From NCBI GenBank assembly GCA_903825245.1, contig CAIJZX010000014.1:1655-65654 (forward strand): DNA of 64,000 nucleotides, in the 5' to 3' direction. Both the position numbers and the translations under genes were made by a program. Source of the DNA: Candidatus Kerfeldbacteria bacterium (GTDB taxonomy: Bacteria; Patescibacteriota; Patescibacteriia; SBBC01; CAIJZX01). Shown here one piece after another: positions 20,638 through 36,084 of the stretch. Numbering within the stretch: position 1 is the stretch's first letter; each line of letters starts with the position of its first letter. The notes beneath the pieces were generated by a model, which saw only the letters and a list, made by a program, of their open reading frames with translations, was not told where the DNA came from and did not search any database.

Positions 20638-20643
20638 TCGCAC

Positions 20644-22669: not shown

Positions 22670-22672
22670 TCC

Positions 22673-23479
22673 ATGATCGCTCAACGTCTCGATGGCCGGC
22701 GTGAAGCTGACCGAATTCTTAAACAATTGACGGCTGCCGTGCGACGCGCGCGGCGGCCGATAACATTAGCCACAATTCTTGTCGGCAATCGTTTTGATTC
22801 CGCGTTGTACGTTAAATTAAAACGTCAGGCCGCCGCGCGCGTCGGCATCAATACGGAATACATTCACCTGCCGGAAACGACATCACAAGCGCGACTAGAA
22901 AAAATTATTACCGAACTCAATCGCCGAAAAACTATTCACGGCATTTTGTTGCAATTACCTCTACCGAAACACTTAGATGCTGATGCCGCGATTGCCGTCA
23001 TGGATCCGAAAAAAGATGCTGACGGTTTTCATCAGCGTAATACCTATATCGTGCCACCGCCGGTCGCGGCTGTTTTGCGGCTCATTGCTTTGGGAAAACC
23101 AAAACCGAACAGCTTGGCCACTATTATTGCCAAACCGTCCGTCTTCACCACGCGACTCGCCCATGAATTGGAACAATTACACTACAGCGCAATAATTTTA
23201 CCGCCACATCGATTAATGCGTACCATCACGGCTAAAAGCGATGTTCTCGTAACGGCGCTCGGCGAAGGCTCATTCGTTCTTCCGACAGATGTGAAATCGG
23301 GAGCGATCATTGTTGATGTTGGCATCCGGAAACATGACCTCAAAACTGTCGGCGACGTTACACCGTCGGTTTGGAAAAAGGCCAGCGCGATCAGTCCCGT
23401 TCCAGGCGGCGTCGGTCCGATGACGATTGCGTTTTTACTCTGGAACACGTATCAACTTGCTCGACGCAAAACCGCATAA
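22673..23479 (+). CDS. folD: Bifunctional methylenetetrahydrofolate dehydrogenase/cyclohydrolase
   Basis: GILLQLPLPKHLD and PVPGGVGPMTIAFLLWNT, the conserved FolD motifs. Confidence 0.9.
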   Translation: MIAQRLDGRREADRILKQLTAAVRRARRPITLATILVGNRFDSALYVKLKRQAAARVGINTEYIHLPETTSQARLEKIITELNRRKTIHGILLQLPLPKHLDADAAIAVMDPKKDADGFHQRNTYIVPPPVAAVLRLIALGKPKPNSLATIIAKPSVFTTRLAHELEQLHYSAIILPPHRLMRTITAKSDVLVTALGEGSFVLPTDVKSGAIIVDVGIRKHDLKTVGDVTPSVWKKASAISPVPGGVGPMTIAFLLWNTYQLARRKTA

Positions 23480-23583
23480 GTCCACACTCCTTAGGTGTTT
23501 CCGTACGTGTTCCTGTCTACATGACAAATCGTTAGTACCCGAAGTTATAATGAACAGCAAAACTACGGTTAGGATACATTCCA

Positions 23584-23612
23584 TTGACTCCCTAAAACAG
23601 AAAACCTATACT
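23584..23612 (+). promoter_or_regulatory. Candidate promoter TTGACT-N17-TATACT
   Basis: Hexamers at 23584-23589 and 23607-23612, about 32 nt upstream of the small ORF at 23645. Confidence 0.45.
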
Positions 23613-23644
23613 AGTAATAGATTGTATATACTCACATTACTATC

Positions 23645-23881
23645 ATGGGAATTGAAAATCCAGAAAGCGGATTAGAAGACAAGGGTTTGTGGTTTAATCC
23701 AGAACGCATATTTGAAATGTGGGAATTCAAAGGTTTGCCCGACCATCCTGAGATAACAGAGGCTGAAGCTAAGGACCATGTGACCAAATATATAACCGTC
23801 GGTGATAATGAATATGCCAGCGACGATGATTTGCGTAAGTTTGGGTTTGAGCGTAGAGAAACCCCGACAGAAACGGCATAA
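23645..23881 (+). CDS. Hypothetical acidic 78-aa protein
   Basis: An ORF with a promoter upstream and no SD, in the host style. No recognisable family. Confidence 0.4.
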   Translation: MGIENPESGLEDKGLWFNPERIFEMWEFKGLPDHPEITEAEAKDHVTKYITVGDNEYASDDDLRKFGFERRETPTETA

Positions 23882-23912
23882 GAAAAAAGTCGCGTCCAGC
23901 AGATACGCGACT
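23882..23912 (-). terminator. Terminator (hairpin AGTCGCGT...ACGCGACT followed by T6 on the - strand) for the 23915..24499 gene
   Basis: An 8-bp perfect stem immediately 3' of the - strand stop codon, with an A-run on the + strand equal to a T-run on the - strand. Confidence 0.5.
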
Positions 23913-23914
23913 AG

Positions 23915-24499
23915 TTAGGGTGCCGGACTTTTTGCCATCAGCAGGAAATTGTTGACGATCGTTTTATCGAACGGCACATCAACGATCACCAGGAGATTCC
24001 CCTGACTATCGGGAATTCCATGAATGACTACCTTGACATTGGTCGGCCAACGCTGTTCGCCGATTTGCGTGAGGGTTATCCGTACGCCGTTTTCCCTTTG
24101 AAAAGGGTGACCGTGACTATCAAGCACCTGGAACGCAATGGTCATCGCATGGTGGGTAATAAATCCAGGTATCCACGTCATCCGATGAACCGCAACGGAA
24201 TCAATCGGGAAGCGCGTCAGCAAAAAATGTTCTTCGTCTGACACATACTTGTCGTTCGACTCCGAATGGAGAACCATGGTGGCCCAATATTCCGGCAACC
24301 ACTCGTGTTTACCGAATTGCTTGAGCACCAACTCGACGGTACCGTCCGAAGATTGCAACGCTTTCCCCGACTGGTCGGTGATAATAACACCGATTGTGGT
24401 CGGCACCATTTTGATACGGTGCGCCTTGTGTGCCGAAACCGGTGATACGAAGATTATTAGGCCGCAGAACAACGCGGCCACGAACATCGTGCAACGCAT
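23915..24499 (-). CDS. Secreted hypothetical protein (start chosen at MRCTMFVAALFCGLIIFVSPVSA; the longest ORF reaches 24571)
   Basis: A signal-peptide-like N-terminus. The ATG at 24497-24499 is preceded by GGAGG at a 6-nt spacing. Confidence 0.5.
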   Translation of the reverse strand: MRCTMFVAALFCGLIIFVSPVSAHKAHRIKMVPTTIGVIITDQSGKALQSSDGTVELVLKQFGKHEWLPEYWATMVLHSESNDKYVSDEEHFLLTRFPIDSVAVHRMTWIPGFITHHAMTIAFQVLDSHGHPFQRENGVRITLTQIGEQRWPTNVKVVIHGIPDSQGNLLVIVDVPFDKTIVNNFLLMAKSPAP

Positions 24500-24587
24500 T
24501 GTCTGCCTCCGCTGGTGAAAGGAACAGTACTTCGATGGGCGCATCCTATCCGTCTCTGAGCAGAAAGTCAAATAAAAACGCGGGTCG

Positions 24588-24986
24588 TTAGGCGACTCGC
24601 GTGGTGGGTTCCGAAACGGTGATCAGTGCGGCCAGCGAACTGGCCAGAGTATAGTTGTCGGGGATCCCCAGGATGATGTACGCACTTCGTGCCAGATCAG
24701 CATACTGCCAAACAGCACTTTCGTCGCCGTTCAGAAGTGCCAAGTAGGCACGATCATTAGCGAGCAACAATTCGTAGCGATACCCGCTAATGGTTGCCAG
24801 ATGCCGTTCGTGGATCTCCCTCAAGAGCCTCATCATGATCAGCAGCCGATCCATGGTTCCTCCGTCGTGGAGGTTGAGGGTTGAAGAATACCGGTGAACC
24901 AAGGTGCGGAAATGACCTCCTTTGGTAGTGAAAATCACGACCAAAAACAATACTCCTACGCTACTCCCGAGTTGATTTCGCGTCAA
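24588..24986 (-). CDS. Hypothetical protein (a doubtful gene)
   Basis: The only ORF filling a 418-bp gap. It has no SD or recognisable motif, and its start would overlap the divergent promoter at 24972-25000. Confidence 0.25.
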   Translation of the reverse strand: MTRNQLGSSVGVLFLVVIFTTKGGHFRTLVHRYSSTLNLHDGGTMDRLLIMMRLLREIHERHLATISGYRYELLLANDRAYLALLNGDESAVWQYADLARSAYIILGIPDNYTLASSLAALITVSEPTTRVA

Positions 24987-25000
24987 GAGCGTGGTAGTAT
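24972..25000 (+). promoter_or_regulatory. Candidate promoter TTGATT-N17-TAGTAT (extended TG) giving a leaderless IMPase mRNA
   Basis: The -10 hexamer ends at 25000 and the ATG is at 25009. The longest-ORF start (GTG at 24991) lies inside the promoter. Confidence 0.45.
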
Positions 25001-25008
25001 CGTGGCCT

Positions 25009-25809
25009 ATGACGTTTGGTGAATTTATCGAGAAAAATCTGCTCGTTGTTGGAGAATTAAGCCGCGCAAAATTCGGAAAAGTTTCCTCAACGGTAAAAAC
25101 AGAAGATACTAATCAAGTGCTGACCGAGACTGATCTAGAGATTGGGACAGTATTATTGACTGCGATCTCCGCTTCCTATCCCAACCATAATACTATCGAT
25201 GAAGAGACTGGCAGCATCAATCGTGAGTCGGAATACACATGGGTGGTTGACCCGATTGATGGAACAAGTAATTTTGCGAATGGCATCCCGATGTACGGTA
25301 CGTTATTGGGCTTGTTGTATAAAGACGAGCCGGTGGCGGGCGGTATGATTCTTCCATTTTTCAACGACCTATATGTAGCTGAACGCGGCACAGGCACGTT
25401 GCATAATGGTACAAAAACCCACGTTACAGCAGAAAATAAATTGATAAACGTTTTAGTGGGGTACGGAATTGATAGCCACAAAAATGAAGCTGAAAAAACT
25501 CAGGAAGAAATGCAGACCCTTGGAAGGATTATTGATAAGATTCGGAATCTTCGCACTAGTAACAGCGTTTTTGATGCGGCCATGGTCATAGATGGGCGCT
25601 ATGGTGCGTTCCTTAATCGCAATAGTAAAATTTGGGATAACATTGCTCAGCATATTCTCATTGAAGAGGCCGGCGGTGTCTATACCGATTTTTTCGGGCA
25701 TCCAATGAATTATCAAAATGCATTGAATCGAATACCTGAAAACTTTACCTGGTGCGCTGGTGCCCCTGATATTCATAAACAGTTGCAACACATTATTCAT
25801 TCACAGTAA
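25009..25809 (+). CDS. Inositol monophosphatase family protein (SuhB/IMPase-like)
   Basis: WVVDPIDGTSNFANGIP, the IMPase metal-binding motif, and a downstream GG..TDF region. Confidence 0.8.
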   Translation: MTFGEFIEKNLLVVGELSRAKFGKVSSTVKTEDTNQVLTETDLEIGTVLLTAISASYPNHNTIDEETGSINRESEYTWVVDPIDGTSNFANGIPMYGTLLGLLYKDEPVAGGMILPFFNDLYVAERGTGTLHNGTKTHVTAENKLINVLVGYGIDSHKNEAEKTQEEMQTLGRIIDKIRNLRTSNSVFDAAMVIDGRYGAFLNRNSKIWDNIAQHILIEEAGGVYTDFFGHPMNYQNALNRIPENFTWCAGAPDIHKQLQHIIHSQ

Positions 25810-25811
25810 TT

Positions 25812-26891
25812 ATGTCCTTCCAAATCGGAATTGTCGGCCTCCCGAACGTCGGAAAATCTTCCCTCTTTCAAGTCCTGACGAAGAAACAAGTTGATACATC
25901 TAACTATCCGTTCGCGACAATCGATCCAAACGTGGGCGTCGTGGCCGTACCTGACGAACGACTTGATGTTCTGACGAAAATGGAACATTCGGCCAAGACC
26001 ATCGCCACCACCATTGAATTCGTCGACATTGCCGGATTGGTGAAAAACGCACACAAAGGAGAAGGACTCGGCAATAAGTTTCTCGCCAATATTCGTGAAG
26101 TGGACGCTATAGCTGAGGTTGTCCGTGCGTTTGAAGATGATAATGTCATCCACGTCGCCGGAAAGGTTGATCCGGCCTCGGACACGGCCACGATTGACAT
26201 CGAATTAGCTATGGCTGACTTGAGCACCGTTGAAAAACGCGTTGATGCCCTCTCGAAACAGAAGAAGGCCGGGTTGAATAAGCAACAAGAACTTGAACTC
26301 GGATTGATGGAAAAAATTCAGGCACATCTCGCCGACGGTAAACCAGTTCGAGATTTTGCCATGACTGACGACGATAAATTGCTCATCAAATCATACAATC
26401 TGCTGACCAGTAAACCCTTACTCTACATTCTCAACGTCAGTGAAGCGCAAGTTGCCACCGCTAACCCGGAAACCTACGGCTTACCGGTAGATCGTACGGT
26501 TGTCATCGCGGTGAAAGTTGAGCAGGAGCTGGCAGGATTAAGTGCCGAGGATACAACGGCGTATTTGAAAGAACTCGGACTCAGTGCCTCCGGTCTCGAC
26601 CGACTTATCCAAGCCGCCTACCGTGCCCTCGGGCTCATCACCTTCCTCACCACCGGCGCCGATGAAACGCGCGCTTGGACAACGACCATCGGTACACCGG
26701 CACCAAAGGCGGCGGCAGTTATTCACACCGATTTTGAAAAGCACTTTATCCGAGCAGAGATTGTATCCTACGCCGACCTTGTAGCCGCCGGATCATGGGA
26801 AGCGACAAAAGCTTCGGGGAAGCTCCGGATTGAAGGAAAAACCTATATTGTCCAAGACGGCGACGTCGTTTTCTTCCGAGTTAACGTATAG
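25812..26891 (+). CDS. ychF: Ribosome-binding ATPase YchF
   Basis: G1 motif GIVGLPNVGKSS, followed by NYPFATIDPNVGVV, a coiled-coil insert and a C-terminal TGS domain. Confidence 0.9.
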   Translation: MSFQIGIVGLPNVGKSSLFQVLTKKQVDTSNYPFATIDPNVGVVAVPDERLDVLTKMEHSAKTIATTIEFVDIAGLVKNAHKGEGLGNKFLANIREVDAIAEVVRAFEDDNVIHVAGKVDPASDTATIDIELAMADLSTVEKRVDALSKQKKAGLNKQQELELGLMEKIQAHLADGKPVRDFAMTDDDKLLIKSYNLLTSKPLLYILNVSEAQVATANPETYGLPVDRTVVIAVKVEQELAGLSAEDTTAYLKELGLSASGLDRLIQAAYRALGLITFLTTGADETRAWTTTIGTPAPKAAAVIHTDFEKHFIRAEIVSYADLVAAGSWEATKASGKLRIEGKTYIVQDGDVVFFRVNV

Positions 26892-26927
26892 AATTTTTCC
26901 GTCCACCGTCCAGGGCTTGACGCCGGA

Positions 26928-26956
26928 TTGTTGTTGGTGTCCCAGAGCGTTATACT
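26928..26956 (+). promoter_or_regulatory. Candidate promoter TTGTTG-N17-TATACT downstream of ychF
   Basis: Hexamers at 26928-26933 and 26951-26956. With the terminator at 27230-27254 it brackets a ~300-nt unit for which no convincing CDS was found. Confidence 0.35.
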
Positions 26957-27229
26957 GACAACAGATTTGCCCCTCACATGGGTTCTGCCAGCAGTCCCAC
27001 CCGATATGGAGGTTGTGTGGCTCGACGACGGCAACATCCACCCAGAACACAGCAGTCCAGGCATCACCAAACAACAGTTGACCAGCGCCGGAAAATCAAG
27101 GATTCGGCAAACACTCGTGCAAAACATTTGGGCACAGTGAACCGATGTTTAGTTAATACCAGTCGCGTTGCTCTAGCACTGTTGGCACTGACGCACCTTC
27201 AGTAGATCAACATGCGTCTTTCTTTCGTG

Positions 27230-27254
27230 CCAGTCTCGACGAGACTGGTTTTTA
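27230..27254 (+). terminator. Rho-independent terminator (CCAGTCT-CGACG-AGACTGG followed by TTTTT)
   Basis: A perfect 7-bp stem plus T5 on the + strand, 340 bp after the ychF stop. Nothing upstream of it was confidently annotated. Confidence 0.55.
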
Positions 27255-27293
27255 TTATACGTCATCTTTATCAGGCGAGAGAATCGTTAATTC

Positions 27294-27335
27294 GGCCCCC
27301 TCCTCAAGTGAGGAGGGGTAAGGGGAGGTGAAAAA
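27294..27335. repeat. GA-rich palindromic element GGCCCCCTCCTC-AAGT-GAGGAGGGGT-AAGGGGAGGTG
   Basis: Same family as the copy inside uvrC (5646-5680) and the extended copy at 32708-32803. This one is intergenic, between convergent genes. Confidence 0.7.
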
Positions 27336-27382
27336 TTTCTGTAACACAAAAAACTACTATCTTCGAGGAGAGACTCAACAGG

Positions 27383-28594
27383 TTACGCCACTCGCCACAT
27401 CCGAACCTGTCGACGAACACGAGCATCATCGCGAGCGTAGGTCAGGACGTTTGGGGTAGTAATATGCAGTTTTACCGCCGATGCTTCTGACAACATTGGA
27501 AGTTTTTCAAAACCAAGATTGAGGATTGCCTGTTCAATATCAATCGTCACCGATTCTTCACCGGCAAGAAACTCCGGCCAAATCATCACCACGCGCGCGC
27601 CCGGCTTAAGATGTTTTTTCCACTGCGTAAAACTTTGGAAATACAGCGTGCCGATTTCTTTCGCTTGCGACGCCAGCCAATCGTGCGGTTCATGGCCGCG
27701 CAATGGTTTCCCTAAATACGGCTCCGTCACGATAACGTCCGCTTTCGTCGTTACCTGCCGCGCATCACGCATGGTGATTTCGACATCGGTGCTCAATTCA
27801 GGAAATTCAGAAAATAACCACTTGATGTTTTCCTGGGTTTCTTTCACTGGTCTCGATTCAAGATCGCTGGCTACAATTTTCTTCACGCCCATCAACGCTG
27901 CTTCTTGTACAATCGTCCCCGAACCACAAAACGGATCGAGCAACAAGTCGTCCGGCTTCACTTGAGCGATATTCAACATCATCTGCGCCAACTTCGGCGG
28001 AATCATGCCGCTCTTCGCGTTCGCCGCCGGACGACCGAAATCCCGCAGACCATAGAGTTGGTAATCTTGTACTGCATGTGTCGCGCCGACGATGATTTCA
28101 CTGTCGTTCTTGAAAAAAACAAATTCTTTTCCTTTTTTTATTAGGCCGTTGCGTTGTACTGTCACTGCGGAAAGTTGCTGGTCTTGCGAGGTGACAAATC
28201 GAACCGGCCGATCGGCAGCCACGATTTCTTTTTTTAGGCGCAGAGCGATTTTTTGAATCAACGCGCGGTCGTTTGATGTCCCATTATAGAAACTAACGCC
28301 AAACTCAACGCGGCCGGTTTCGGGAAAATGGCGCTCAATCCACTCCTTCGTCAACTGTTCGTGCAAGGTTTTCGAAACTGATTCTGGCACCGGCCAGTGT
28401 TCAACAACCTGAACCTGCTTAATACTGCCACCTAACCGATTTAATATGCGCTCGGGAAGTGGTTGTTCATGGCGAACAACCGCACCAGCCTCTGACAACG
28501 CCATTACCTCGCCCGACCACAGCGGCGCACGAGCCTCGAGTTCGGCCACGGAAAACTCCGGTTCGCGACCGAGGATAAATAATGTCTCTTCCAT
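27383..28594 (-). CDS. SAM-dependent RNA methyltransferase with an N-terminal THUMP-like domain (Trm11/TrmN/RlmL-like, putative m2G methylase)
   Basis: SAM motif I LLDPFCGSGTIVQEA, a downstream D-L-E and a TEPPYG-like segment (TEPYLGKP), plus a ~150-aa N-terminal RNA-binding region. A TATACT hexamer lies 10 nt upstream of the ATG, which suggests a leaderless mRNA. Confidence 0.7.
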   Translation of the reverse strand: MEETLFILGREPEFSVAELEARAPLWSGEVMALSEAGAVVRHEQPLPERILNRLGGSIKQVQVVEHWPVPESVSKTLHEQLTKEWIERHFPETGRVEFGVSFYNGTSNDRALIQKIALRLKKEIVAADRPVRFVTSQDQQLSAVTVQRNGLIKKGKEFVFFKNDSEIIVGATHAVQDYQLYGLRDFGRPAANAKSGMIPPKLAQMMLNIAQVKPDDLLLDPFCGSGTIVQEAALMGVKKIVASDLESRPVKETQENIKWLFSEFPELSTDVEITMRDARQVTTKADVIVTEPYLGKPLRGHEPHDWLASQAKEIGTLYFQSFTQWKKHLKPGARVVMIWPEFLAGEESVTIDIEQAILNLGFEKLPMLSEASAVKLHITTPNVLTYARDDARVRRQVRMWRVA

Positions 28595-28629
28595 AGGTCA
28601 TCAGTATAGCGGAATAACGGTTTTCCGCC

Positions 28630-28662
28630 AGTCCCGCACCACAAATTTTGTGGTGCGGGACT
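28630..28662. promoter_or_regulatory. 33-bp perfect palindrome AGTCCCGCACCACAAA-T-TTTGTGGTGCGGGACT between divergent promoters
   Basis: The reverse complement of 28630-28645 equals 28647-28662 exactly. It is not followed by a T-tract on either strand. It sits at about -40 to -75 of the rpsF-operon promoter and overlaps the -35 region of the divergent methyltransferase promoter. Confidence 0.5.
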
Positions 28663-28666
28663 AGTC

Positions 28667-28695
28667 TTTACAGGATCTGAGGGGTATGGTAGAGT
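28667..28695 (+). promoter_or_regulatory. Candidate promoter TTTACA-N17-TAGAGT (extended TG) for the rpsF-ssb-rpsR-efp operon, giving a ~130-nt structured leader
   Basis: Hexamers at 28667-28672 and 28690-28695. The leader at 28700-28830 contains the hairpin GCGGGTT-CCAA-ACCCGC. An S6:S18-binding autoregulatory leader is known upstream of rpsF in many bacteria. Confidence 0.4.
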
Positions 28696-28830
28696 GCTCC
28701 CACAACGACGTGCACCCACAAACAGTGGGCGCTCCCAAATGGGACCCATGCGTCAAAACCTTTAGCCCCAAGTATTCGAGGGGCCTATGAGGCGGGTTCC
28801 AAACCCGCTTATTCATTATTGTCCAATCCC

Positions 28831-29337
28831 ATGCAACAGCATTACGACGTCCTCTATATCATCCCCGGCACAAAAGCCGAAGACGAGGTTCCAGCCTTGG
28901 TTGAAAAAGTACATGAACTCCTGAAGGCAAACGGCGCTACGATTGTCAAGCAAGATTTCTGGGGCAAGCGCAAACTGGCTTACGAAATCGATCATATCCG
29001 CTACGGTTACTACGATGCCGTCGAATTCGATATGGAATCGACCACGTTGAATATCCTCGAACAAGCGCTCCGACTCAGTCCAATCGTCCTCCGCTCGCAA
29101 ATCACTCGTCGTAAAGTTTTGACGCCGGAACAAATAGCGGCCAATGCTGAAATCCACGAACGTATCGCCGCTAAACGCGAAGTTGCGAAAGAAAAAGAAG
29201 CGGCTGCGATTATGACCAAGCCTGATGCTAAACCGATTGAGCCAGATGTCGCTCCGGCACCGCAAGCCCCGGTTGAGACGAAGCAACTCGACGAAAAGAT
29301 CGAGGAAATTCTCGGATCTGACAAGGTCGATTTCTAA
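28831..29337 (+). CDS. rpsF: 30S ribosomal protein S6 with an acidic/Lys-rich C-terminal extension
   Basis: MQQHYDVLYIIPG...WGKRKLAYEIDHIRYGYY is the S6 fold signature. The longest ORF starts 12 nt earlier, at 28819. Confidence 0.9.
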   Translation: MQQHYDVLYIIPGTKAEDEVPALVEKVHELLKANGATIVKQDFWGKRKLAYEIDHIRYGYYDAVEFDMESTTLNILEQALRLSPIVLRSQITRRKVLTPEQIAANAEIHERIAAKREVAKEKEAAAIMTKPDAKPIEPDVAPAPQAPVETKQLDEKIEEILGSDKVDF

Positions 29338-29369
29338 TCCTACATATTTTATCATCTTATTCCACGCCT

Positions 29370-29819
29370 ATGGGATTCAGCCTTAATCGCGCCACTATCC
29401 TCGGGAACGTCACTCGCGATCCTGAGACACGTACCACCACCAGCGGTCAGTCCGTCGTTTCCTTTAGTGTCGCCACGTCGCGACGTTGGAAGGATCAAAC
29501 CTCGGGGGAACTCAAGGAAGCCACTGAATTCCACAATTGCGTTGGCTGGGGCAAGCTCGCCCAAACCATCGGCACCTACGTCCACAAAGGAAGCAAGGTT
29601 TATCTTGAAGGACGCATTCAAACTCGTTCGTGGGATGATCCGACCGGCGCGAAGAAGTACCGCACGGAAATTGTGGCTGAAAGCTTGATCCTCCTCGATA
29701 AGAAAGGTGACAACCCAGTCGTTGGCGCGCCAGCAAGTGCTCCAGCCATCGCCACTGATACCGCTCAACCAGCGGCTCCAACCGAAGAAGAAATTAATAT
29801 TGAAGATATTCCGTTTTAA
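29370..29819 (+). CDS. ssb: Single-stranded DNA-binding protein
   Basis: An OB-fold N-terminus (LNRATILGNVTRDPETRTTTSGQSVVSFSVA), a Gly/Pro-rich linker and an acidic tail ending in DIPF. Confidence 0.9.
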   Translation: MGFSLNRATILGNVTRDPETRTTTSGQSVVSFSVATSRRWKDQTSGELKEATEFHNCVGWGKLAQTIGTYVHKGSKVYLEGRIQTRSWDDPTGAKKYRTEIVAESLILLDKKGDNPVVGAPASAPAIATDTAQPAAPTEEEINIEDIPF

Positions 29820-29833
29820 TCCCGACCACCCTT

Positions 29834-30067
29834 ATGCGTCAGAAACAACAACACGCGCCTCTTAAAGAGCGCACCTGCTATCTCTGTGCGAATGCGATCG
29901 ACGAACTCGATTACAAAGATGTTCGCAGTCTGCAACGTTTTACCTCCGCTTCCGGAAAGATTTCCCCGCGTCGGAAGAGCGGTGCCTGTATGAAGCACCA
30001 GCGCATCATCGGCGAAGCGATCAAGCGCGCCCGCATCATGGCCTTGATGCCGTTCACCAACAGCTAA
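29834..30067 (+). CDS. rpsR: 30S ribosomal protein S18
   Basis: CYLCANAIDELDYKDVRSLQRFTSASGKISPRRKSG is the S18 signature. Confidence 0.9.
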   Translation: MRQKQQHAPLKERTCYLCANAIDELDYKDVRSLQRFTSASGKISPRRKSGACMKHQRIIGEAIKRARIMALMPFTNS

Positions 30068-30080
30068 AGCAGATACAGCT

Positions 30081-30644
30081 ATGATGGACATGAACGATAT
30101 TCGAGTTGGAACACTCGTCAAAATTGATAACGCGCCGTACGTTTGTTTGTGGTCGGATTTCATGCGCACCGCACAGCGTAAACCGGTTCGACGAACGAAA
30201 CTGAAGAATCTCATTACCGGCGGCGTGCTCGAACAAACCTTCAAGCATGGCGATAAGATTGAAGAAGCTGATGTTGAGCGGACGAAAGCCAGCTTCCTCT
30301 ACGCCGATGATCAGGGCGCGCACTTCATGGACAACACGTCGTATGAACAAGTGACCGTGCCGAAAGAAATGGTTGAGGAACAACTCCACTTTATGAAAGA
30401 CGGCAACGAATACACCGTCGTCAATTTTGAAGGCAAGCCGATTACGATTGAACTGCCGAAGAAAGTAGAATTCAAAGTCACCGATACCTCCGACGTTGTC
30501 CGCGGTGACACCACCGGTGCCGTCCTCAAAGATGCTACGATCGAAACCGGTTACGTCATGAAAGTTCCGCAGTTCGTGAAGACGGGTGATGTCATTCGCA
30601 TCAACACGGAAACCGAAGAATATACGGAACGCGTAACGGAATAA
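30081..30644 (+). CDS. efp: Elongation factor P
   Basis: A KOW-like N-terminus (IRVGTLVKIDNAPYVCLW...KPVRRTKLKNLITG) and two OB domains, 187 aa. Confidence 0.9.
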   Translation: MMDMNDIRVGTLVKIDNAPYVCLWSDFMRTAQRKPVRRTKLKNLITGGVLEQTFKHGDKIEEADVERTKASFLYADDQGAHFMDNTSYEQVTVPKEMVEEQLHFMKDGNEYTVVNFEGKPITIELPKKVEFKVTDTSDVVRGDTTGAVLKDATIETGYVMKVPQFVKTGDVIRINTETEEYTERVTE

Positions 30645-30655
30645 ATTTTCACACA

Positions 30656-30700
30656 CCACCAAGGTACAGCGGTGGGCTTTCCAGCCCACCGCTTTCAGTA
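30656..30700 (+). terminator. Hairpin AGCGGTGGGC-TTTCC-AGCCCACCGCT after efp, with a weak U-tract
   Basis: A 10-bp perfect stem followed by TTCAGT rather than a full T-run. Confidence 0.4.
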
Positions 30701-30720
30701 ACGTTAAAATCAAAAAATCA

Positions 30721-30749
30721 TTGACAAAAACGTGTTTTTCTGATATACT
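30721..30749 (+). promoter_or_regulatory. Consensus promoter TTGACA-N17-TATACT
   Basis: Hexamers at 30721-30726 and 30744-30749. It drives the hypothetical gene at 30797. Confidence 0.5.
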
Positions 30750-30796
30750 AGTATTGTTCTTAAATTAATTTGAGGAATTCACTAACCGCAAACCAT

Positions 30797-31420
30797 ATGC
30801 CAGAAGGAGCCCCAAGTCACGAAGGAGAGGGTGTTGTTGTACACGATGAGACATACCGCGTAACTGATGTCGCCAAAGCTCGCACTATGGCCGCGGATGA
30901 ACGCACTCCAGAAGGTCGCGTAATACATGAGGGTTCGAATCGGGCTCGTAGCGATGCGGAGGTATTTAAGAAATCTGCCGAAGAACGCAAACGTTTATTT
31001 CCAGATACAGAATTTATTACCGATCATAGCGAAAAAGCAAACGAGCTCACAGCCCAAGCGGAAAACATCGAACACAGTAATGGTTTACATTACGAAGCCG
31101 ATAAAATTGTTGATGCGGTCGGTGAAAACGTTTCTTATGAAGCAATTTTTACGTACGAACAACGCGCCGCTGAAGCTCAACGGGATGTTGAGGCACTCCA
31201 ACGAGTATACGAAGGATTATTCGATAAGCCGGGACGTGAACGAGATGCACAGTCACTCAAGCGCTCTCTCAGCGAGACCCAAGACCAGGAACGTATTTAT
31301 CACTACGCCTTTTCTAAACTTCGCGGTAAAGGGATGGAGCAACTTGCGGGCGGGCATAAATTTTGGGATGAGTACAACGATTTTAAAGCAAAGAAGCTGG
31401 CAACGGTTGAAAAGAAATAA
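30797..31420 (+). CDS. Hypothetical acidic protein (ATG at 30797; the longest ORF begins at a TTG at 30770)
   Basis: A 207-aa ORF downstream of a consensus promoter. No conserved motif was recognised. After its stop the hairpin GCAGCGAGCCTAGACTCGCTGC is followed by TTTT, a likely bidirectional terminator shared with recA. Confidence 0.5.
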   Translation: MPEGAPSHEGEGVVVHDETYRVTDVAKARTMAADERTPEGRVIHEGSNRARSDAEVFKKSAEERKRLFPDTEFITDHSEKANELTAQAENIEHSNGLHYEADKIVDAVGENVSYEAIFTYEQRAAEAQRDVEALQRVYEGLFDKPGRERDAQSLKRSLSETQDQERIYHYAFSKLRGKGMEQLAGGHKFWDEYNDFKAKKLATVEKK

Positions 31421-31475
31421 TATCCTTTCATTCTAAAAAGCAGCGAGCCTAGACTCGCTGCTTTTGTAATTCATT

Positions 31476-32567
31476 TTATTCCGCCTTCTCTTCCGCCGGT
31501 TCGTCAGCAACCGCCGCCGGTTTTGTTCCAGCATCATCTTCCGCTTGGCGGTCTTTCGCTACTTCAAGAACCTTCTTCCGAAGCTCATCGATAATTTTTG
31601 GATTATCTTGCAAATATTGCTTCGAGGCTTCGCGGCCAACGCCGAATTTAATTTCACCGTAGGAAACGGTGTTACCGGATTTCGTCAGCACACCGTAGAG
31701 CAACGCCGTGTCGAGTACATCGGATACCAGTGAAATCCCTTGGTTGTACATGATGTCGAACTCAGCTACGCGGAACGGAGCGGCGACTTTGTTCTTCACA
31801 ATTTTCGCCTTGGTGCGGTTGCCGATAATCTTATCACCGAGTTTCAACTGACCAATGCGGCGAACTTCGATACGAACCGAGCAGTAGAATTTCAAGGCTG
31901 TCCCACCAGTCGTCGTTTCCGGATTACCGAAGAAGACGCCGATCTTCATGCGCGTCTGGTTGATGAAGATAACGATGGTTTTCGTCTTTGACACGATGGC
32001 CGTGAGCTTACGCAATGCTTGCGACATCAATCGCGCTTGCAAGCCCATATGTGAATCGCCCATCTCACCTTCAATTTCCGCTTTTGGCGTTAAGGCCGCG
32101 ACCGAGTCAATGACGACGACGTCAACCGCATTCGAGCGCACCAGTGTTTCCACGATTTCTAACGCTTGTTCACCTGAGTCCGGTTGTGAGATTAAGAGTT
32201 CATCAACATTCACGCCAATCTTTCGCGCGTAGCTTGGATCAAGAGCGTGTTCGGCATCAACGAAGGCGGCGGTTCCGCCGGCGCGCTGTACTTCCGCCAC
32301 AATGTGTTGTGCCAACGTGGTTTTTCCCGACGCTTCCGGTCCGAAGATTTCAATCACCCGACCGCGCGGCACGCCGCCCACGCCGAGCGCTAAATCTAAC
32401 GACAAACATCCCGTGGAGACGACATCGACGTCCATCGCCCGGGCTTCACTAAATTTCATAATCGATCCTTCACCGAAACGCTCTCGGATCTGATCGACCG
32501 CCGTTTGCGCGGCCGCATTTTTTATCTTACCGGCGTCAGCACCGGCGCTTTTTTGGCTCTTGGCCAT
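31476..32567 (-). CDS. recA: Recombinase A
   Basis: Walker [14 protein letters not shown], RecA loops L1 and L2, and an acidic C-terminus. 363 aa. Confidence 0.93.
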
Positions 32568-32707
32568 ATGGTTATTCCTTTCTTACCGCACGTCTTCCCA
32601 CAAATCGGGGACAGTCGGGGTTTAATGAATTAATGATACCCGAAGAATAACCGAATGTCAACAAAAGATATCCACAAGCTTTTTATGTCGTAATAATGCG
32701 GTATTTC

Positions 32708-32803
32708 GGCCCTCTCCTTGGATAAGGGGAGGTGAAGGAGGGGTCACAAAACCACCATTTTTTCACCACCTCCCCTTCACCCCTCCTCGGCTGAGGAGGG
32801 GGC
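32708..32803. repeat. Extended (~95-bp) composite GA-rich palindrome of the same family as 5646-5680 and 27294-27335
   Basis: GGCCCTCTCC..AAGGGGAGGTGAAGGAGGGGTCAC-AAAACCACCATTTTTT-CACCACCTCCCCTTCACCCCTCCTC-GGCT-GAGGAGGGGGCC. It contains the hairpin CCCCTCCTC/GAGGAGGGG and lies immediately upstream of the island promoter. Confidence 0.65.
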
Positions 32804-32814
32804 CGGATTGGGTC

Positions 32815-32843
32815 TTGACAAAATCCCCTACTTGTCCTATACT
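32815..32843 (+). promoter_or_regulatory. Consensus promoter TTGACA-N17-TATACT at the head of the small-gene island
   Basis: Hexamers at 32815-32820 and 32838-32843. It is the only consensus-quality + strand promoter found between here and the terminator at 37727-37750. Confidence 0.5.
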
Positions 32844-32907
32844 GTCCAGTTCTTTAAATCCATAAATTACTTCTACTTCGCCCACGTGAGCAGACGCGGC
32901 GCGAACG

Positions 32908-32965
32908 ACGGGTGCGTTGTCTTGATTACTCTGCTCATGTAGTCACTACGACGCACCCGTTTTTC
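32908..32965 (+). promoter_or_regulatory. Attenuator-like leader hairpin (ACGGGTGCG ...35-nt loop... CGCACCCGT followed by TTTTT), with a possible competing pairing TGAGCAGA/TCTGCTCA
   Basis: A 9-bp stem plus T5, lying between the promoter and the first island ORF. TGAGCAGA at 32887-32894 can pair with TCTGCTCA at 32930-32937, which sits inside the terminator loop. Confidence 0.4.
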
Positions 32966-32995
32966 GTTCAGACTTCATTTACCATAGGAGGATGT

Positions 32996-33205
32996 GTGAC
33001 TGCCCTAGAACGTGACACACGTGTGTCCATCATCATCGGAATCGCTGCCCTCTGTAGCATTACCTTGGTGGTTGGCGGAACTATGGCCAAATGTATCGGT
33101 ATGGCCACCAAGTGCGCAGGCGTGGTGATTGGTGGCGGCATCATCGCTGCCGTTTGTGTCGCCGCCTGGGGCTTGTACAGGTCTTATCAGACCACACGAA
33201 AGTAG
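32996..33205 (+). CDS. Island ORF A: small two-TM, Gly-rich membrane peptide (GTG start, 69 aa; longest ORF from 32912)
   Basis: AGGAGG 4 nt before the GTG. Product ...IIIGIAALCSITLVVGGTMAKCIGMATKCAGVVIGGGIIAAVCVAAWGLYRSYQTTRK, with glycine-zipper-like GxxxG motifs. Confidence 0.45.
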   Translation: MTALERDTRVSIIIGIAALCSITLVVGGTMAKCIGMATKCAGVVIGGGIIAAVCVAAWGLYRSYQTTRK

Positions 33206-33364
33206 CTCGTACCATCTACACAGATGTAAAACGTGAGGGAGGGAGAACAGCCACGTTTTCCTCCCACTCTCACATGAATTGATCACTACTGGTCACATCA
33301 TGCGAGAGGTCTGTACCTTGACTCTCAATAAAGAAAATACTGCGTTCCCGTTTTTCGTTCAACG
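33203..33364. repeat. Type-1 inter-ORF unit, copy 1 (~160 bp), starting at the ORF A stop codon
   Basis: TAGCTCGTACCATC...GTGAGGGAGGGAG..CCTCCCACTCTCAC-ATGAATTGATCACTACTGGTCACATCATGCGAGAGGTCTGTACCTTGACTCTCAATAAAGAAAATACTGCGTTCCCGTTTTTCGTTCAACG. The last ~100 nt are identical to copy 3. Confidence 0.75.
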
Positions 33365-33386
33365 TACTTCAACAAAGGGACACCCA

Positions 33387-33557
33387 ATGCTTCGTTCATT
33401 GGCACTGCTGGCTTGGATATGTCTCGCGTCATTAATCCATGACTGCGAAAGATACGTCTGGCGCTGCAAGGTGAAGAGACTTCGGAAGACACTCAATGGT
33501 CGAAATCATGAGTTGGATGTCTTCTTGAAGAATCTCGAGGAATACTACGCGATGTAG
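33387..33557 (+). CDS. Island ORF B: 56-aa protein with a hydrophobic N-terminus (MLRSLALLAWICLASLIHDCERYVWRCKVKRLRK...)
   Basis: The ATG is preceded by AAAGGGA. The longest ORF (33279) begins inside the repeat, and copy 2 of that repeat carries an in-frame stop, so the upstream part is not coding. Confidence 0.45.
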   Translation: MLRSLALLAWICLASLIHDCERYVWRCKVKRLRKTLNGRNHELDVFLKNLEEYYAM

Positions 33558-33714
33558 TTCGTACCGTCGCCACACGACGTAAACAAGTGAGGGAGGGAGA
33601 ACAGCCACGTTTTCCTCCCACTCTCACATGATTTGGTCACCGTTGGTCACATCATGCGAGAGGTCTGTACCTTGACTCTCAATGAAGAAAATAGCACTCC
33701 CGTTTTTCGTTCAA
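33555..33714. repeat. Type-1 inter-ORF unit, copy 2 (a diverged copy)
   Basis: It starts at the ORF B stop (TAGTTCGTACCGTC...) and shows ~85 % identity to copy 1, including the GTGAGGGAGGGAG hairpin and the CCCGTTTTTCGTTCAACG tail. Confidence 0.75.
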
Positions 33715-33748
33715 CGCTGTGAACCCATACAGCCCTTGGAGGATCATC

Positions 33749-33949
33749 ATGGTTCCTCATCCGCTCAAGCTCAAGCGTGATGAACAGTACCTGCAGAGCA
33801 GTATTGCTCTTCTGATCACGGTTGTCCCCATCGTCGTCATCGTGAGGTATGGCTGGCATGGTTATGCCGTATTATACCTGATCGCCCTCATCATCTTCGC
33901 GATCTACAAGTTCGTCAGGGGCATGATGATCAAGGTCCCGAAGAGCTAG
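33749..33949 (+). CDS. Island ORF C: 66-aa two-TM membrane peptide
   Basis: GGAGGA 5 nt before the ATG. MVPHPLKLKRDEQYLQSSIALLITVVPIVVIVRYGWHGYAVLYLIALIIFAIYKFVRGMMIKVPKS. Confidence 0.5.
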   Translation: MVPHPLKLKRDEQYLQSSIALLITVVPIVVIVRYGWHGYAVLYLIALIIFAIYKFVRGMMIKVPKS

Positions 33950-34120
33950 CCCGCACCATCGCCTCGCGATGAAATTTGTGAGGGAGGATTGAGGAGGGTT
34001 TACCTTTTCTCTTCTCCCTCACCCCTCACATGAATTGATCACTACTGGTCACATCATGCGAGAGGTCTGTACCTTGACTCTCAATAAAGAAAATACTGCG
34101 TTCCCGTTTTTCGTTCCACG
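33947..34120. repeat. Type-1 inter-ORF unit, copy 3
   Basis: It starts at the ORF C stop (TAGCCCGCACCATC...). Its 5' hairpin is the variant GTGAGGGAGGATTGAGGAGGG..CTCCCTCAC, and its 3' ~100 nt are identical to copy 1. Confidence 0.75.
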
Positions 34121-34137
34121 CCAATTCGGAGGTCATC

Positions 34138-34308
34138 ATGAGGATGGGCACGTTCAGCACGATCGAGCGAATTATGGAGGACAACGGACTACCGGTTCCA
34201 AGCGGGCGAGGAAATGAGAAGCTCAACGAAATCGCAAGAATCGTCGAGACTCACGAAATGCCTGAGGATGTCCGACAGCGTCTTCGTAACTTGCTCGCCC
34301 TTCGCTGA
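34138..34308 (+). CDS. Island ORF D: 56-aa hydrophilic protein (MRMGTFSTIERIMEDNGLPVPSGRGNEKLNEIARIVETHEMPEDVRQRLRNLLALR)
   Basis: GGAGG 5 nt before the ATG. It is absent from the ORF track only because it is under 60 aa. It ends just before a shortened leader (CAAGTTTTCGTTCAC). Confidence 0.4.
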   Translation: MRMGTFSTIERIMEDNGLPVPSGRGNEKLNEIARIVETHEMPEDVRQRLRNLLALR

Positions 34309-34366
34309 CTCAACGACAAGCAACGCACAAGTTTTCGTTCACACTTCTCGCTACGGAGGTTACACC

Positions 34367-34615
34367 ATGTCGTCCAATCCGATGACGTCGGAGCAGAAGG
34401 TTACGCAACTCCTGGTAGCGCTCGTGTTGACCATTCTTGGTCTGCCGATCGCCGCGCTTGGTGGTTACGGCATCTACTTTGCCTTCACCAATACCGGTGC
34501 CGATCCCGGCCTCGGATCAGCGGCCATTCTGGTCTTCTGCGTCGGCATCGGCGCTATCGGCATCGCCATCAAGCTGACCAACGATGCGCGTCGGGCGAAG
34601 ACGAGTCCGATCTAG
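34367..34615 (+). CDS. Island ORF E: 82-aa two-TM, Gly-rich membrane peptide
   Basis: GGAGG 7 nt before the ATG. MSSNPMTSEQKVTQLLVALVLTILGLPIAALGGYGIYFAFTNTGADPGLGSAAILVFCVGIGAIGIAIKLTNDARRAKTSPI. Confidence 0.5.
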   Translation: MSSNPMTSEQKVTQLLVALVLTILGLPIAALGGYGIYFAFTNTGADPGLGSAAILVFCVGIGAIGIAIKLTNDARRAKTSPI

Positions 34616-34649
34616 ATGCACCTTGAGATAAGGGGGACCCGCGAGTTCC

Positions 34650-34704
34650 CTTCTCACTCGACTTGAGAACTAATCCAATAGTTGTCCGGTCAAGTGAGAA
34701 AACC
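34650..34704 (+). repeat. Type-2 leader hairpin, copy 1 (TCTCACTCGAC ...loop... GTCAAGTGAGAAAACC)
   Basis: The stem CACTCGAC/GTCAAGTG contains one G-U pair and is followed by GAGAAAA. The motif family recurs upstream of ORFs at 35251, 36142 and 36738. Confidence 0.65.
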
Positions 34705-34745
34705 AAAGTAACATCGTTCCGTCACAATCAAATCTGGAGGATACA

Positions 34746-35105
34746 ATGACCAATCTGGCTTTGGCTGTCACTGTTATTGGCGCCGCCGCTGTCATCGTGG
34801 TTGTCTGGCGCTTCATGCGTCACAAGTTCCGCAACGACGAGATCGCTGTTCCGGACGAACCCACGCCGCCGCAACCGGTCTATAACGATAGGCCCGTGAT
34901 CGAGGCTGAAGAAATCGGTCACGGCGTTTACGAGATCGGGTTCTACGGACGCTTCGATGGGGTCCTGATGGACGTCTTTCCGGAATCCCTCGCCGCCTTC
35001 GTCAAGCAGCACCCCGAGTTGCGGATCATCAGCGTCTGCACCGGACGTGAATCCAGTTACAATGGCTTCACTTCCAGTATGGTTGTGTTGACCGAACTGC
35101 GTTAA
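34746..35105 (+). CDS. Island ORF F: 119-aa protein with an N-terminal TM anchor and a small soluble domain
   Basis: GGAGGA 4 nt before the ATG. MTNLALAVTVIGAAAVIVVVWRFMRHKF... followed by a ~85-aa domain. Confidence 0.55.
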   Translation: MTNLALAVTVIGAAAVIVVVWRFMRHKFRNDEIAVPDEPTPPQPVYNDRPVIEAEEIGHGVYEIGFYGRFDGVLMDVFPESLAAFVKQHPELRIISVCTGRESSYNGFTSSMVVLTELR

Positions 35106-35165
35106 GCACCTTCAACTCGAGCCACCCGGCTCATTGAGAGGATGGATAGCCACATCGTCCTCCTT

Positions 35166-35208
35166 TCACTCGAGTATTGCAAGCAATTGAAATATTCAAG
35201 CGAAACAC
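35166..35208 (+). repeat. Type-2 leader hairpin, copy 2 (a diverged copy: TCACTCGAG...TTCAAGCGAAACAC)
   Basis: It shares TCACTCGAG and the CAAG(T/C)GA(G/A)AAAC tail. A further partial CAACTCGAG...CTCATTGAG lies at 35111-35140. Confidence 0.5.
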
Positions 35209-35250
35209 AGAAAATAGAAACTGCTCTTCACAACACTAGGAGGTTCAAGG

Positions 35251-35484
35251 ATGGACATTCCTGCGTTTCACAGCGTTACGGCTCACAAAGAACATGAATG
35301 TTGTGAATGCCACGAGCGGATTCTTCCGAAGGAGAGGTGCTGGATTCAGTACTGGCCGGATGCTCGTCAGCGTCGGTGGAAGAATGTTTTTACCTGCTCT
35401 CACTGTCGTCCGCAACACGAAGTACCGGCACAGCCTACGCCGGCACCTCAGCCGATCAAGTCTCAGCAGTTGTTGCTTCTGTAG
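35251..35484 (+). CDS. Island ORF G: Cys-rich 77-aa protein (HECCECHERILPKERCW...CSHCRPQH), a zinc-ribbon-like product
   Basis: TAGGAGG 7 nt before the ATG. Two CxxC-like clusters lie about 30 residues apart, followed by a Pro/Gln-rich tail. Confidence 0.55.
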   Translation: MDIPAFHSVTAHKEHECCECHERILPKERCWIQYWPDARQRRWKNVFTCSHCRPQHEVPAQPTPAPQPIKSQQLLLL

Positions 35485-35508
35485 CCCACCTCAACAAGGA
35501 GCTCCAAA

Positions 35509-35967: not shown

Positions 35968-36037
35968 ACCTCCTAGCTGTTCTCGCCTGCCGCGCAATTC
36001 TACGTTCACTTCGGTGGATATGGATTGCGCGGCGGGC

Positions 36038-36084
36038 TCTCACTCGAGCGTTTCACAACCGTGGAACGTTCAAGTGAGAAAACG
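36038..36084 (+). repeat. Type-2 leader hairpin, copy 3 (CTCTCACTCGAGCGTT...AACGTTCAAGTGAGAAAACG)
   Basis: A 14-nt stem with one mismatch and one G-U pair, followed by GTCACAAT as in copy 1. Confidence 0.65.

Follow-up and report, generated by a model that had tools for sequence, protein, structure and literature searches.

The stretch of DNA analyzed in this study, hereafter called the window, comprises 64,000 nucleotides (nt) of contig CAIJZX010000014.1 from Candidatus Kerfeldbacteria. It contains, upstream of the gene rpsF, which encodes the ribosomal protein S6, a long and structured 5′ leader that is the main subject of this text, and next to it a perfect palindrome of 33 base pairs (bp). 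The named relatives of the encoded S6 belong to 'Candidatus Kerfeldbacteria' and to metagenome-assembled genomes (MAGs) of the 'Patescibacteria group', which places the window in a patescibacterial genome, i.e., within the candidate phyla radiation (CPR). The local gene order starts with ychF on the plus strand (25812–26891), followed by a gene for a UPF0020-type methyltransferase on the minus strand (27383–28594, ATG at 28594–28592). Divergent from the latter lies rpsF (28831–29337, plus strand, 168 amino acids), the first gene of the operon rpsF-ssb-rpsR-efp, with ssb, rpsR and efp following downstream on the same strand and recA thereafter on the minus strand. The intergenic gap between the methyltransferase gene and rpsF measures 236 nt and accommodates the palindrome, both promoters and the leader. 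A first-pass annotation of this DNA had considered the leader to be a candidate for the autoregulatory S6:S18-binding leader known from upstream of rpsF, and the palindrome to be an operator shared by the two divergent genes.

For comparison, 12 S6 proteins with identities of 99–51% were looked up exactly and their surrounding DNA was retrieved. A profile scan of genome contigs with the S6 alignment mostly led to distant phyla, the pattern being too universal, and added L001 as the only member of the clade, while a metagenome scan with the clade-specific C-terminus of S6 had one distant locus, L091, among the matches listed. Altogether, 13 distinct leaders were compared (the window, L081, L082, L084, L085, L086, L087, L089, L001, L092, L095, L097 and L100); the leader of L101 equals the one of L100 except for one base. 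The leader is thus kept in 12 further distinct relatives, reaching down to about 50% S6 identity. In the relatives with flanking sequence retrieved, the order of ychF, the methyltransferase gene (minus strand) and rpsF-ssb-rpsR-efp is kept together with the promoter and the leader. Wherever the retrieved sequence reaches far enough, the methyltransferase gene was called on the upstream side of rpsF and ssb-rpsR-efp on its downstream side.

A promoter scan of positions 28400–29000 yielded TTTACA-17-TAGAGT as the sole promoter-like site, which is the promoter that had been named in the first-pass annotation. Its −35 hexamer TTTACA is located at 28667–28672 and, at a spacing of 17 nt, its −10 hexamer TAGAGT at 28690–28695, with a TG upstream that makes it an extended −10 (TGGTAGAGT, 28687–28695, plus strand; pattern TGRTANNNT). 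Each of the 13 distinct leaders has one single match to this pattern upstream of rpsF. The −35 hexamers of the relatives read TTTACA, TTGCCA, TTGCTA or TTGCCT, all of them at the same spacing of 17 nt, so that a −35 and an extended −10, properly spaced and kept in relatives, characterize this site as a promoter of the sigma-70 type. Judging from the spacing, transcription would start at the A in position 28702 (plus strand), 7 nt past the −10; the corresponding seventh base is an A in 11 of the 13 leaders. From this predicted start to the rpsF ATG at 28831 the leader extends over 129 nt (28702–28830), in line with the approximate range of 28700–28830 given for it in the first pass.

The presence of a long leader contrasts with the rest of this genome, which the first-pass annotation had described as using short leaders or none. 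Indeed, a Shine-Dalgarno (SD)-like motif was found upstream of only six of the 44 long open reading frames (ORFs) in the window, making the genome nearly SD-less, and several genes (e.g., those at 4300 and 20644 and the methyltransferase gene at 27383–28594) exhibit TATACT or TATAAT 7–9 nt ahead of their ATG and therefore appear to be leaderless. For the methyltransferase gene this −10 box is TATACT at 28603–28608 (minus strand), 8 nt before the ATG, and a −10-like hexamer matching it was located by pattern in nine relatives. As already proposed, the mRNA of this gene is thus predicted from its sequence to be leaderless or nearly so. UUAUUC was considered as a genome-wide ribosome-binding motif; as it occurs 50 times per strand, where about 32 would be expected, and has no clear positioning, this idea is unsupported. 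A proximal promoter giving a leaderless rpsF mRNA was likewise rejected, as no −10 lies at the right distance from the ATG and as L081 has a promoterless insertion of 190 nt at this place.

Folding of the RNA 28695–28840 resulted in an energy of −46 kcal/mol (z = −2.8), and none of 200 shuffled sequences was as stable. The leader is composed of a three-way junction (helices P1, P2 and P3), a subsequent variable hairpin (P4) and a terminator-like hairpin (P5) with a U/A-rich tail, all given here in plus-strand coordinates. P1 closes the junction by pairing GACGU (28707–28711) with GCGUC (28750–28754). Across the leaders it is a long-range helix of 5–9 bp in which one bulge is common, and the transcript start sits a few bases 5′ of it. 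Directly 3′ of the first P1 strand follows the hairpin P2 (28712–28732), in which GCACCCAC pairs with GUGGGCGC around the loop AAACA, and directly 3′ of P2 the hairpin P3 (28733–28744, UCCC-AAAU-GGGA). The base of P3, UCC paired with GGA, is invariant in the 13 sequences in all three of its pairs (U-A, C-G, C-G), whereas its distal part varies between 3 bp with a 5-nt loop (L097) and a helix of ten pairs with one internal mismatch (L092). P3 is connected to the 3′ strand of P1 by J3/1, a linker of 5–6 nt and the sole unpaired segment of the junction (CCCAU at 28745–28749), which is both a candidate contact for the ribosomal protein S18 and a candidate toehold for an antiterminator. In all 13 leaders J3/1 matches the consensus Y-C-C-R-Y with an invariant CC-purine: it reads CCCAU in the window, L081, L082, L085, L001, L095 and L097, CCCGC in L084, CCCGU in L086, UCCGU in L087 and L100, and UCCGC(A) in L089 and L092.

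Downstream of the junction, the predicted fold contains P4 at 28765–28784 (GCCCC-AAGUAUUCGA-GGGGC). A hairpin is present at this position in the minimum-energy folds of all 13 leaders, with sequences that are unrelated between lineages. P5 extends from 28790 to 28810 and has the core GCGGGU-UCCAA-ACCCGC (28792–28808). This hairpin had been named in the first pass as an example of the hairpins in the candidate leader; it is present as described, but it is not the candidate protein site and forms the terminator-like end of the leader. The remaining nucleotides up to the rpsF ATG at 28831 constitute a U/A-rich, SD-less tail and spacer (UUAUUCAUUAUUGUCCAAUCCC, 28809–28830), of which the U-richness, but not the exact letters, is kept among the relatives. 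In these, P5 and its tail are followed by 16–34 nt without SD before the ATG, L081 being excepted. There (2300–2500), the terminator-like hairpin and the ATG are separated by an insertion of about 190 nt, which is GC-rich, contains hairpins and is unique to L081.

The heptamer UAGUCGA was observed in the terminal loops of differing hairpins, namely in P2 of L084 (GAGCUAGUCGA) and L086 (AAGCAUAGUCGA) and in P3 of L100 (CCGCCAUAGUCGA). It could be a module for tertiary or protein contacts that has been moved between helices. A tRNA-like T-loop in P5 (UUCCAAA) was considered and rejected, as this loop is not kept among the relatives, and ARAGORN identified no tRNA or tmRNA at the leader. A leader peptide was dismissed as well, since the sole ORF beginning in the leader (ATG at 28787) is not conserved.

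The described plan was assigned to all 13 leaders by hand segmentation, which was checked on the sequences and by pairing strand against strand. All four helices tested in this way form in 13 of 13 leaders, and single-sequence minimum-energy folds recover the junction, P4 and P5 in most of them. For counting pairs, the 13 leaders were realigned to R1, a covariance model built from the leaders of this clade. Standard pairs occupy 92.1% of the alignment cells, compared to 35–48% when the partners are slid by 1–3 columns; an alignment fitted to R1 inflates pairing somewhat, whereas the pairing analysis by hand is independent of R1. Fourteen of 26 pairs are altered on both sides, a number reached by none of 500 shuffles. 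Such double changes affect 8 of 9 pairs in P2, 4 of 6 in P5 and 2 of 8 in P1, the last also having one-sided changes. R1 matches the leader once per clade genome with 66–105 bits and detects no other copy in the window. A search at E ≤ 10 in rpsF loci from other lineages, about 80 in number and with L002, L003, L013, L071 and L091 from CPR among them, gave no match apart from a chance match of 13.7 bits. These comparisons, which answer the call of the first-pass annotation for structural conservation in relatives, make it very probable that the leader acts in cis on rpsF-ssb-rpsR-efp, upstream of which it forms a structured element that has been conserved.

With its conserved promoter and its terminator-like end, the element might also be regarded as an independent small RNA gene of about 110 nt, with rpsF being expressed from elsewhere or by incidental read-through. 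Yet, the element is always located immediately upstream of rpsF and in the same orientation, R1 finds no second copy in the window and the rpsF ATG has no −10-like box at a distance that would give a leaderless mRNA. In L081, where the 190-nt insertion between the two has no promoter-like sequence, transcription of rpsF must come by read-through from the promoter of the leader. A small RNA gene of its own is therefore very unlikely.

The leader was then compared with the known S6:S18 leader. The classical motif (S6S18CBM) has an outer helix whose 3′ strand, adjoining the start codon, bears the SD, an inner hairpin that is variable in length and conserved near the bulge, and a bulge on the 3′ side with an invariant CC(R), which mimics the nucleotides C719-C720-G721 of 16S rRNA contacted by S18 (PMC3854524, PMC3895269). 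In E. coli, K60 and R63 of S18 contact the CCR (PMC3854524) and the rpsF leader represses translation (PMC4647458). SD-less Chlorobi without the classical motif were described by Matelska et al. (PMC3854524). The corresponding Rfam family RF02893 (RpsF_leader), which had been suggested as a check in the first pass, scores 110 bits on the E. coli leader and has no match in the leader of the window even at E ≤ 10. At the gathering threshold it also matches none of 20 other rpsF loci, which indicates that this model is narrow. With all of Rfam, the whole window gave two tRNAs only at the gathering threshold, and the region 28500–28950 gave nothing but noise at E ≤ 10 (miRNA-like matches on the palindrome; AS-pc01 with 18 bits).

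Because of this narrowness of RF02893, an own model of the classical motif, R2, was built. In the upstream regions of about 65 rpsF loci the classical motif is plain (UCCYU-GC...GC-C-NNAGUCCRNR-AGGGAGG), and R2 is a covariance model from 39 classical rpsF leaders, in which the part beyond the outer helix was trimmed. R2 recovers held-out sequences from Krumholzibacteriota, Rubrobacter, Thermoanaerobaculia and Gemmatimonadetes as well as the likewise held-out motif of E. coli, which it finds at the correct place (L104:352–410, E = 0.006). It has no match in the window or in the 12 relatives; with filters off, its best hit within 28600–28860 reaches 4 bits and is located on the palindrome.

Despite these negative searches, the leader shares several features with S6S18CBM (PMC3854524, PMC3895269, PMC4647458). 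Both lie in the 5′ untranslated region of an operon with rpsF as its first gene and rpsR among the others, both have a closing helix around a hairpin of variable length with a conserved base, and in both an invariant CC-purine remains unpaired between this hairpin and the closing helix's 3′ strand. There are also differences. Here, the closing helix belongs to a three-way junction, in which P2 is an additional hairpin that covaries. It is SD-free and ends about 80 nt from the start codon (76 nt in the case of the P1 strand GCGUC in the window) instead of abutting it with an SD in its 3′ strand, and it is followed by a variable and a terminator-like hairpin. No SD was found upstream of the rpsF ATG in the window or in any relative examined. 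Moreover, the output would here be attenuation, in contrast to the translational repression by the classical motif. As both the SD-bearing outer helix and the recognition by a covariance model of the family (RF02893, R2) fail, the leader is not filed as a member of S6S18CBM. It is not a canonical S6:S18 leader, but a new structural variant of the cis-regulatory leaders of ribosomal-protein operons. Of the original proposal, a conserved and covarying cis element, seen in 13 sequences, is hence retained, whereas the membership in the known family is not. In a literature search, no account of an rpsF leader from Patescibacteria was found, and Rfam contains no family that matches the present one.

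By analogy, the leader may nevertheless work through the same protein contact as the classical motif. The functional bulge of E. coli is AAUCCGUAAGGAG, and J3/1 of L087 and L100 is UCCGU. The S18 protein encoded in the window keeps AIKRAR, which aligns with K60 and R63 of E. coli S18; this is only a compatibility check, as it would be expected in any functional S18. A further likeness, drawn by eye, concerns the h22/h23/h23a junction of 16S rRNA that is bound by S6:S18, as both junctions consist of three helices and have one short unpaired CC-purine linker. In E. coli 16S rRNA, C719-C720-G721 follows the 3′ strand of helix 23, GGAGGAAUA, the 5′ partner of which is AAUUCC. In the leader, Y-C-C-R comes after GGGA with the partner UCCC, which results in the spacings GGA-AUA-CCG in 16S rRNA and GGA-Y-CCR here. 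The strands are also connected differently; relative to the rRNA junction, the leader would be circularly permuted. The leaders bound by S15 in Thermus and Geobacillus are three-way-junction mimics of rRNA, and the leader described here is likewise a three-helix junction.

With regard to a possible output of the leader, P5 was scored as terminator-like with nine pairs and five T in eight positions (tail ATTCATTATT), and it is among the best-ranked terminator-like sites in 20000–39999. A G+C-rich hairpin directly followed by a U-rich tract, as in intrinsic terminators, is present, with a tail that is U/A-rich; after the stem of the hairpin GCGGGU/ACCCGC the sequence continues with UUAUUCAUUAUU. 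In addition, the 5′ arm of P5 (P5a; GCGGGU, often continuing with CC) is complementary to GGGA-YCC, i.e., to the 3′ strand of P3 (P3b) together with J3/1. The duplex of P5a with P3b and J3/1 has an energy of −19.3 kcal/mol in the window (shuffled: −8.1 ± 2.8 kcal/mol) and of −22.0 kcal/mol in L087, and it is weak in L086, L089 and L100. In the alignment, P5a and J3/1 with P3b are paired in 85.8% of the cells, compared to 25–60% when slid. If the 3′ arm of P5 is withheld, as it is during transcription, P5a prefers J3/1 and P3b in about 9–10 of the 13 leaders. Relative to the terminator fold, the antiterminator fold costs 1–10 kcal/mol, so that the energies are compatible with two alternative pairings.

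These features can be combined to a mechanism in which the S6:S18 heterodimer, i.e., two of the operon's own products, would bind the P1/P2/P3 junction, with S18 reading the unpaired CC-purine as it does in C719-C720-G721 of 16S rRNA and in the CCR bulge of the classical motif. The output would be transcription attenuation instead of SD masking. Sequestration of an SD cannot apply, as the genome is nearly SD-less, and SD masking was discarded as a mechanism, since neither the window nor the relatives have an SD ahead of the rpsF ATG. During the synthesis of P5, its 5′ arm GCGGGU would either pair with its own 3′ arm, yielding a terminator, or with GGGA-YCC of P3 and J3/1, yielding an antiterminator. 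For the invasion of P3 and P1 by the nascent P5a, the unpaired CCC of J3/1 would serve as the toehold. Bound S6:S18 would cover this toehold and hold P1 and P3, so that the terminator forms and an excess of S6:S18 would lead to less transcription of rpsF-ssb-rpsR-efp. That the leader acts through the terminator-like hairpin P5 appears somewhat more probable than a different mode of action, and for S6:S18 being its effector the arguments are about evenly balanced. The complete model, a clade-specific cis-regulatory RNA of Kerfeldbacteria-like Patescibacteria that functions as an autoregulatory attenuator, is put forward tentatively, as a possibility that falls just short of being probable on the sequence evidence.

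Several points weigh against this attenuator, beginning with the missing matches to RF02893 and R2 reported above. Other terminators in the window have clean T-runs, whereas A and C interrupt the tail of P5. The covariation of the antiterminator is no better than in shuffles, with one pair showing a double change, because both strands are nearly invariant. Furthermore, the fold with junction and terminator is already the minimum-energy state in most sequences, so that the default of the leader could be 'off'. The invariance of the CC in J3/1 could be explained entirely by its pairing with the GGG of P5a, with no protein involved, and S6:S18 was proposed as effector on the basis of the gene context and of three conserved bases. 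Finally, the whole comparison comprises 13 distinct sequences from one clade.

Some of these points are shared by an explanation in which the leader does not sense anything, but is a constitutive structure that provides a stable 5′ end and a partial terminator or processing site, setting the level of the operon or the half-life of its mRNA, with the U/A-rich tail as a landing site for ribosomes in an SD-less organism. This would fit with the junction and terminator fold being favored without any ligand in most sequences, with the lack of covariation support for the antiterminator and with the tail being kept in character. Conversely, an invariant unpaired Y-C-C-R-Y and an invariant base of P3 over about 50% protein divergence imply a sequence-specific recognition, and the complementarity of J3/1 to P5a would not be expected in a passive stabilizer. 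A purely constitutive role is therefore considered unlikely.

The same platform of terminator and antiterminator might alternatively be controlled by something other than S6:S18, i.e., be a riboswitch or another sensor, responding to a metabolite, ppGpp, Mg2+, a tRNA, SSB or EF-P. Many riboswitches are likewise built from a sensor domain with a terminator-like hairpin behind it, and neither a known family nor the classical S6:S18 model matches the leader. On the other hand, the operon encodes no metabolic or transport gene, and the CCR signature as well as the place before rpsF and rpsR point to S6:S18. Across the leader the loops are variable and the conserved unpaired bases few, which seems to fit a protein site better than a metabolite pocket; judging from known riboswitch classes, about five conserved unpaired bases in the junction next to variable loops are unlike the pockets for metabolites. 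Taken together, a sensor for another factor has a low probability, and attenuation by S6:S18 is the reading followed here.

Transcription attenuation is the mode of action of the L20 leader in B. subtilis (infC-rpmI-rplT) and of the S10 leader in E. coli with L4. The rpsF leader resembles both in having a protein-binding structure upstream of a terminator and a competing pairing. It differs from them in protein, fold and lineage, and its effector and its termination are predictions.

As a context that supports attenuation, an SD-less rpsF immediately preceded by a terminator is also seen in two other lineages of CPR. In the first of them (L002 and L003, with S6 proteins that are 32–34% identical), the leader (about 2186–2245 in L002 and 2895–2960 in L003, upstream of rpsF) ends in a terminator with the stem AACCCUCC...GGGAGGUU and a U-run. 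This terminator stem encloses an inner hairpin and a GAAUACCG bulge, which, together with GGGAGG, gives the topology of the classical motif. The 8-mer of the bulge is identical to positions 714–721 of E. coli 16S rRNA, and R2 scores this leader weakly with 3.8 bits. In the second lineage, represented by the distant, AT-rich CPR relative L091 (about 1190–1383), a different structured leader is found proximal to the promoter, and the SD-less rpsF ATG is preceded, at a distance of about 35 nt, by a canonical intrinsic terminator (AUCCUAAGG...CUUUAGGAU UUUGUUUUUU). It is conceivable, though rather doubtful at present, that SD-less Patescibacteria have rebuilt the S6:S18 feedback as attenuation. 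The linker J3/1 would then be S18 contact and toehold at the same time, and in L002 and L003 the same would have been achieved differently, with the classical outer helix being the terminator stem.

The second feature of the intergenic region is the palindrome at 28630–28662 (no strand assigned), which lies between the two divergent promoters, upstream of the rpsF −35. An inverted-repeat search confirmed it to be perfect, with two arms of 16 nt (28630–28645 and 28647–28662) that are 100% complementary and 1 nt apart. As had been stated in the first pass, no T-run follows on either strand; the plus strand continues with AGTCTTTACAGG and the minus strand with GGCGGAAAACC. Perfect inverted repeats with arms of at least 12 nt occur four times in the window, compared to two in total in 20 shuffles, and a palindrome of the present length greatly exceeds what chance would produce. 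As the palindrome is located upstream of both predicted transcription starts, any function of it would be at the level of DNA. Its left end coincides with the expected position of the methyltransferase −35 and its right end is 4 bp away from the rpsF −35. The independent assembly L103, the S6 of which is 99% identical, has an intergenic region that is 100% identical, including the palindrome; the palindrome is hence not an assembly artefact, while L103 is uninformative on conservation.

A shared operator, as suggested in the first-pass annotation, would be expected to recur in relatives, but none of the nine relatives with a located methyltransferase −10 has the palindrome. In the closest of these, the distance between this −10 and the rpsF −35 is 25 nt (L081, L082 and L086) or 26 nt (L084), compared to 58 nt (25 + 33) in the window. 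AGTC is present at either edge of the inserted palindrome, which is how an insertion would look. Elsewhere, the spacer carries unrelated insertions (+15 nt in L089, +143 nt with inverted repeats of its own in L085 and +352 nt in L087), which makes it a hotspot for insertions and deletions. No second copy of the arm exists in the 64-kb window and none was found in viral contigs. From the sequence comparison, the palindrome is a precise, lineage-specific insertion of 33 nt without sign of a conserved role, and it is probably neutral (a foldback duplication or a REP-like element), which is more likely than an operator. Measured by the refuting condition that the first-pass annotation itself had named, the shared operator is thus unsupported.

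A recently acquired, strain-specific operator for a dimeric DNA-binding protein acting on one or both promoters would be in accordance with the perfect dyad symmetry and the position between the promoters. The absence from the relatives compared and the single copy in the window argue against it, and a perfect palindrome of 33 bp is longer and cleaner than typical operators, which are shorter and less perfect. This explanation is accordingly given little credence. The palindrome has perfect dyad symmetry and an intergenic, promoter-proximal site in common with operators and REP-like insertions, but it is single-copy in the window, not conserved and without an identified cognate regulator; compared to miniature transposable elements (MITEs), it is shorter than most. 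A second perfect palindrome (16 + 16, CCAGCCGCGATTGCCG/CGGCAATCGCGGCTGG) was observed at 55281–55312, inside a 440-amino-acid ORF on the minus strand (55082–56404). Two perfect palindromes of 32–33 nt per 64 kb are far above chance.

Some further observations concern the surrounding genes. The S6 proteins of this clade have a conserved C-terminal extension of about 70 amino acids (residues ~97–168, in the window 29120–29337; RERIAAKRE...KQLDEKLEEILESDKV), which typical S6 proteins do not have. In one Kerfeldbacteria MAG (L101), an ORF for a GIY-YIG protein of 94 amino acids (1336–1620) is located between ssb and rpsR; L100, with an S6 protein identical to that of L101, has an uncalled gap of 312 nt at this position. 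Between the stop codons of ychF and the methyltransferase gene lies a gap of about 490 nt (26892–27382), which is kept with 460–540 nt in L081, L082 and L084. It contains a conserved CTTGACG (26916–26922), a TTG at about 26929 and a TATACT (26951–26956), followed by a poorly conserved part and a strong terminator at 27229–27259. A comparison of this gap with Rfam gave no match at E ≤ 5, and the gap may harbor a small, rapidly evolving gene or RNA that has escaped annotation.

Feedback between RNA and protein has a textbook example in the autoregulatory leaders of ribosomal-protein operons, and the S6:S18 leader is among the few that are thought to be nearly universal. The palindrome is a reminder to be cautious, as perfect symmetry at a promoter is, without conservation, no evidence of an operator. 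The leader itself is not contained in Rfam, and R1 could seed a family for it. It reveals that, in a lineage which mostly does without 5′ leaders and SD initiation, rpsF is still preceded by a long leader that covaries, with another architecture and a presumed terminator-type output. If S6:S18 is indeed the effector, the contact that mimics rRNA, the CC-purine, would have been kept while the regulatory mechanism around it was replaced, and a defined, testable regulatory RNA would be added to organisms whose gene regulation is almost entirely uncharacterized.

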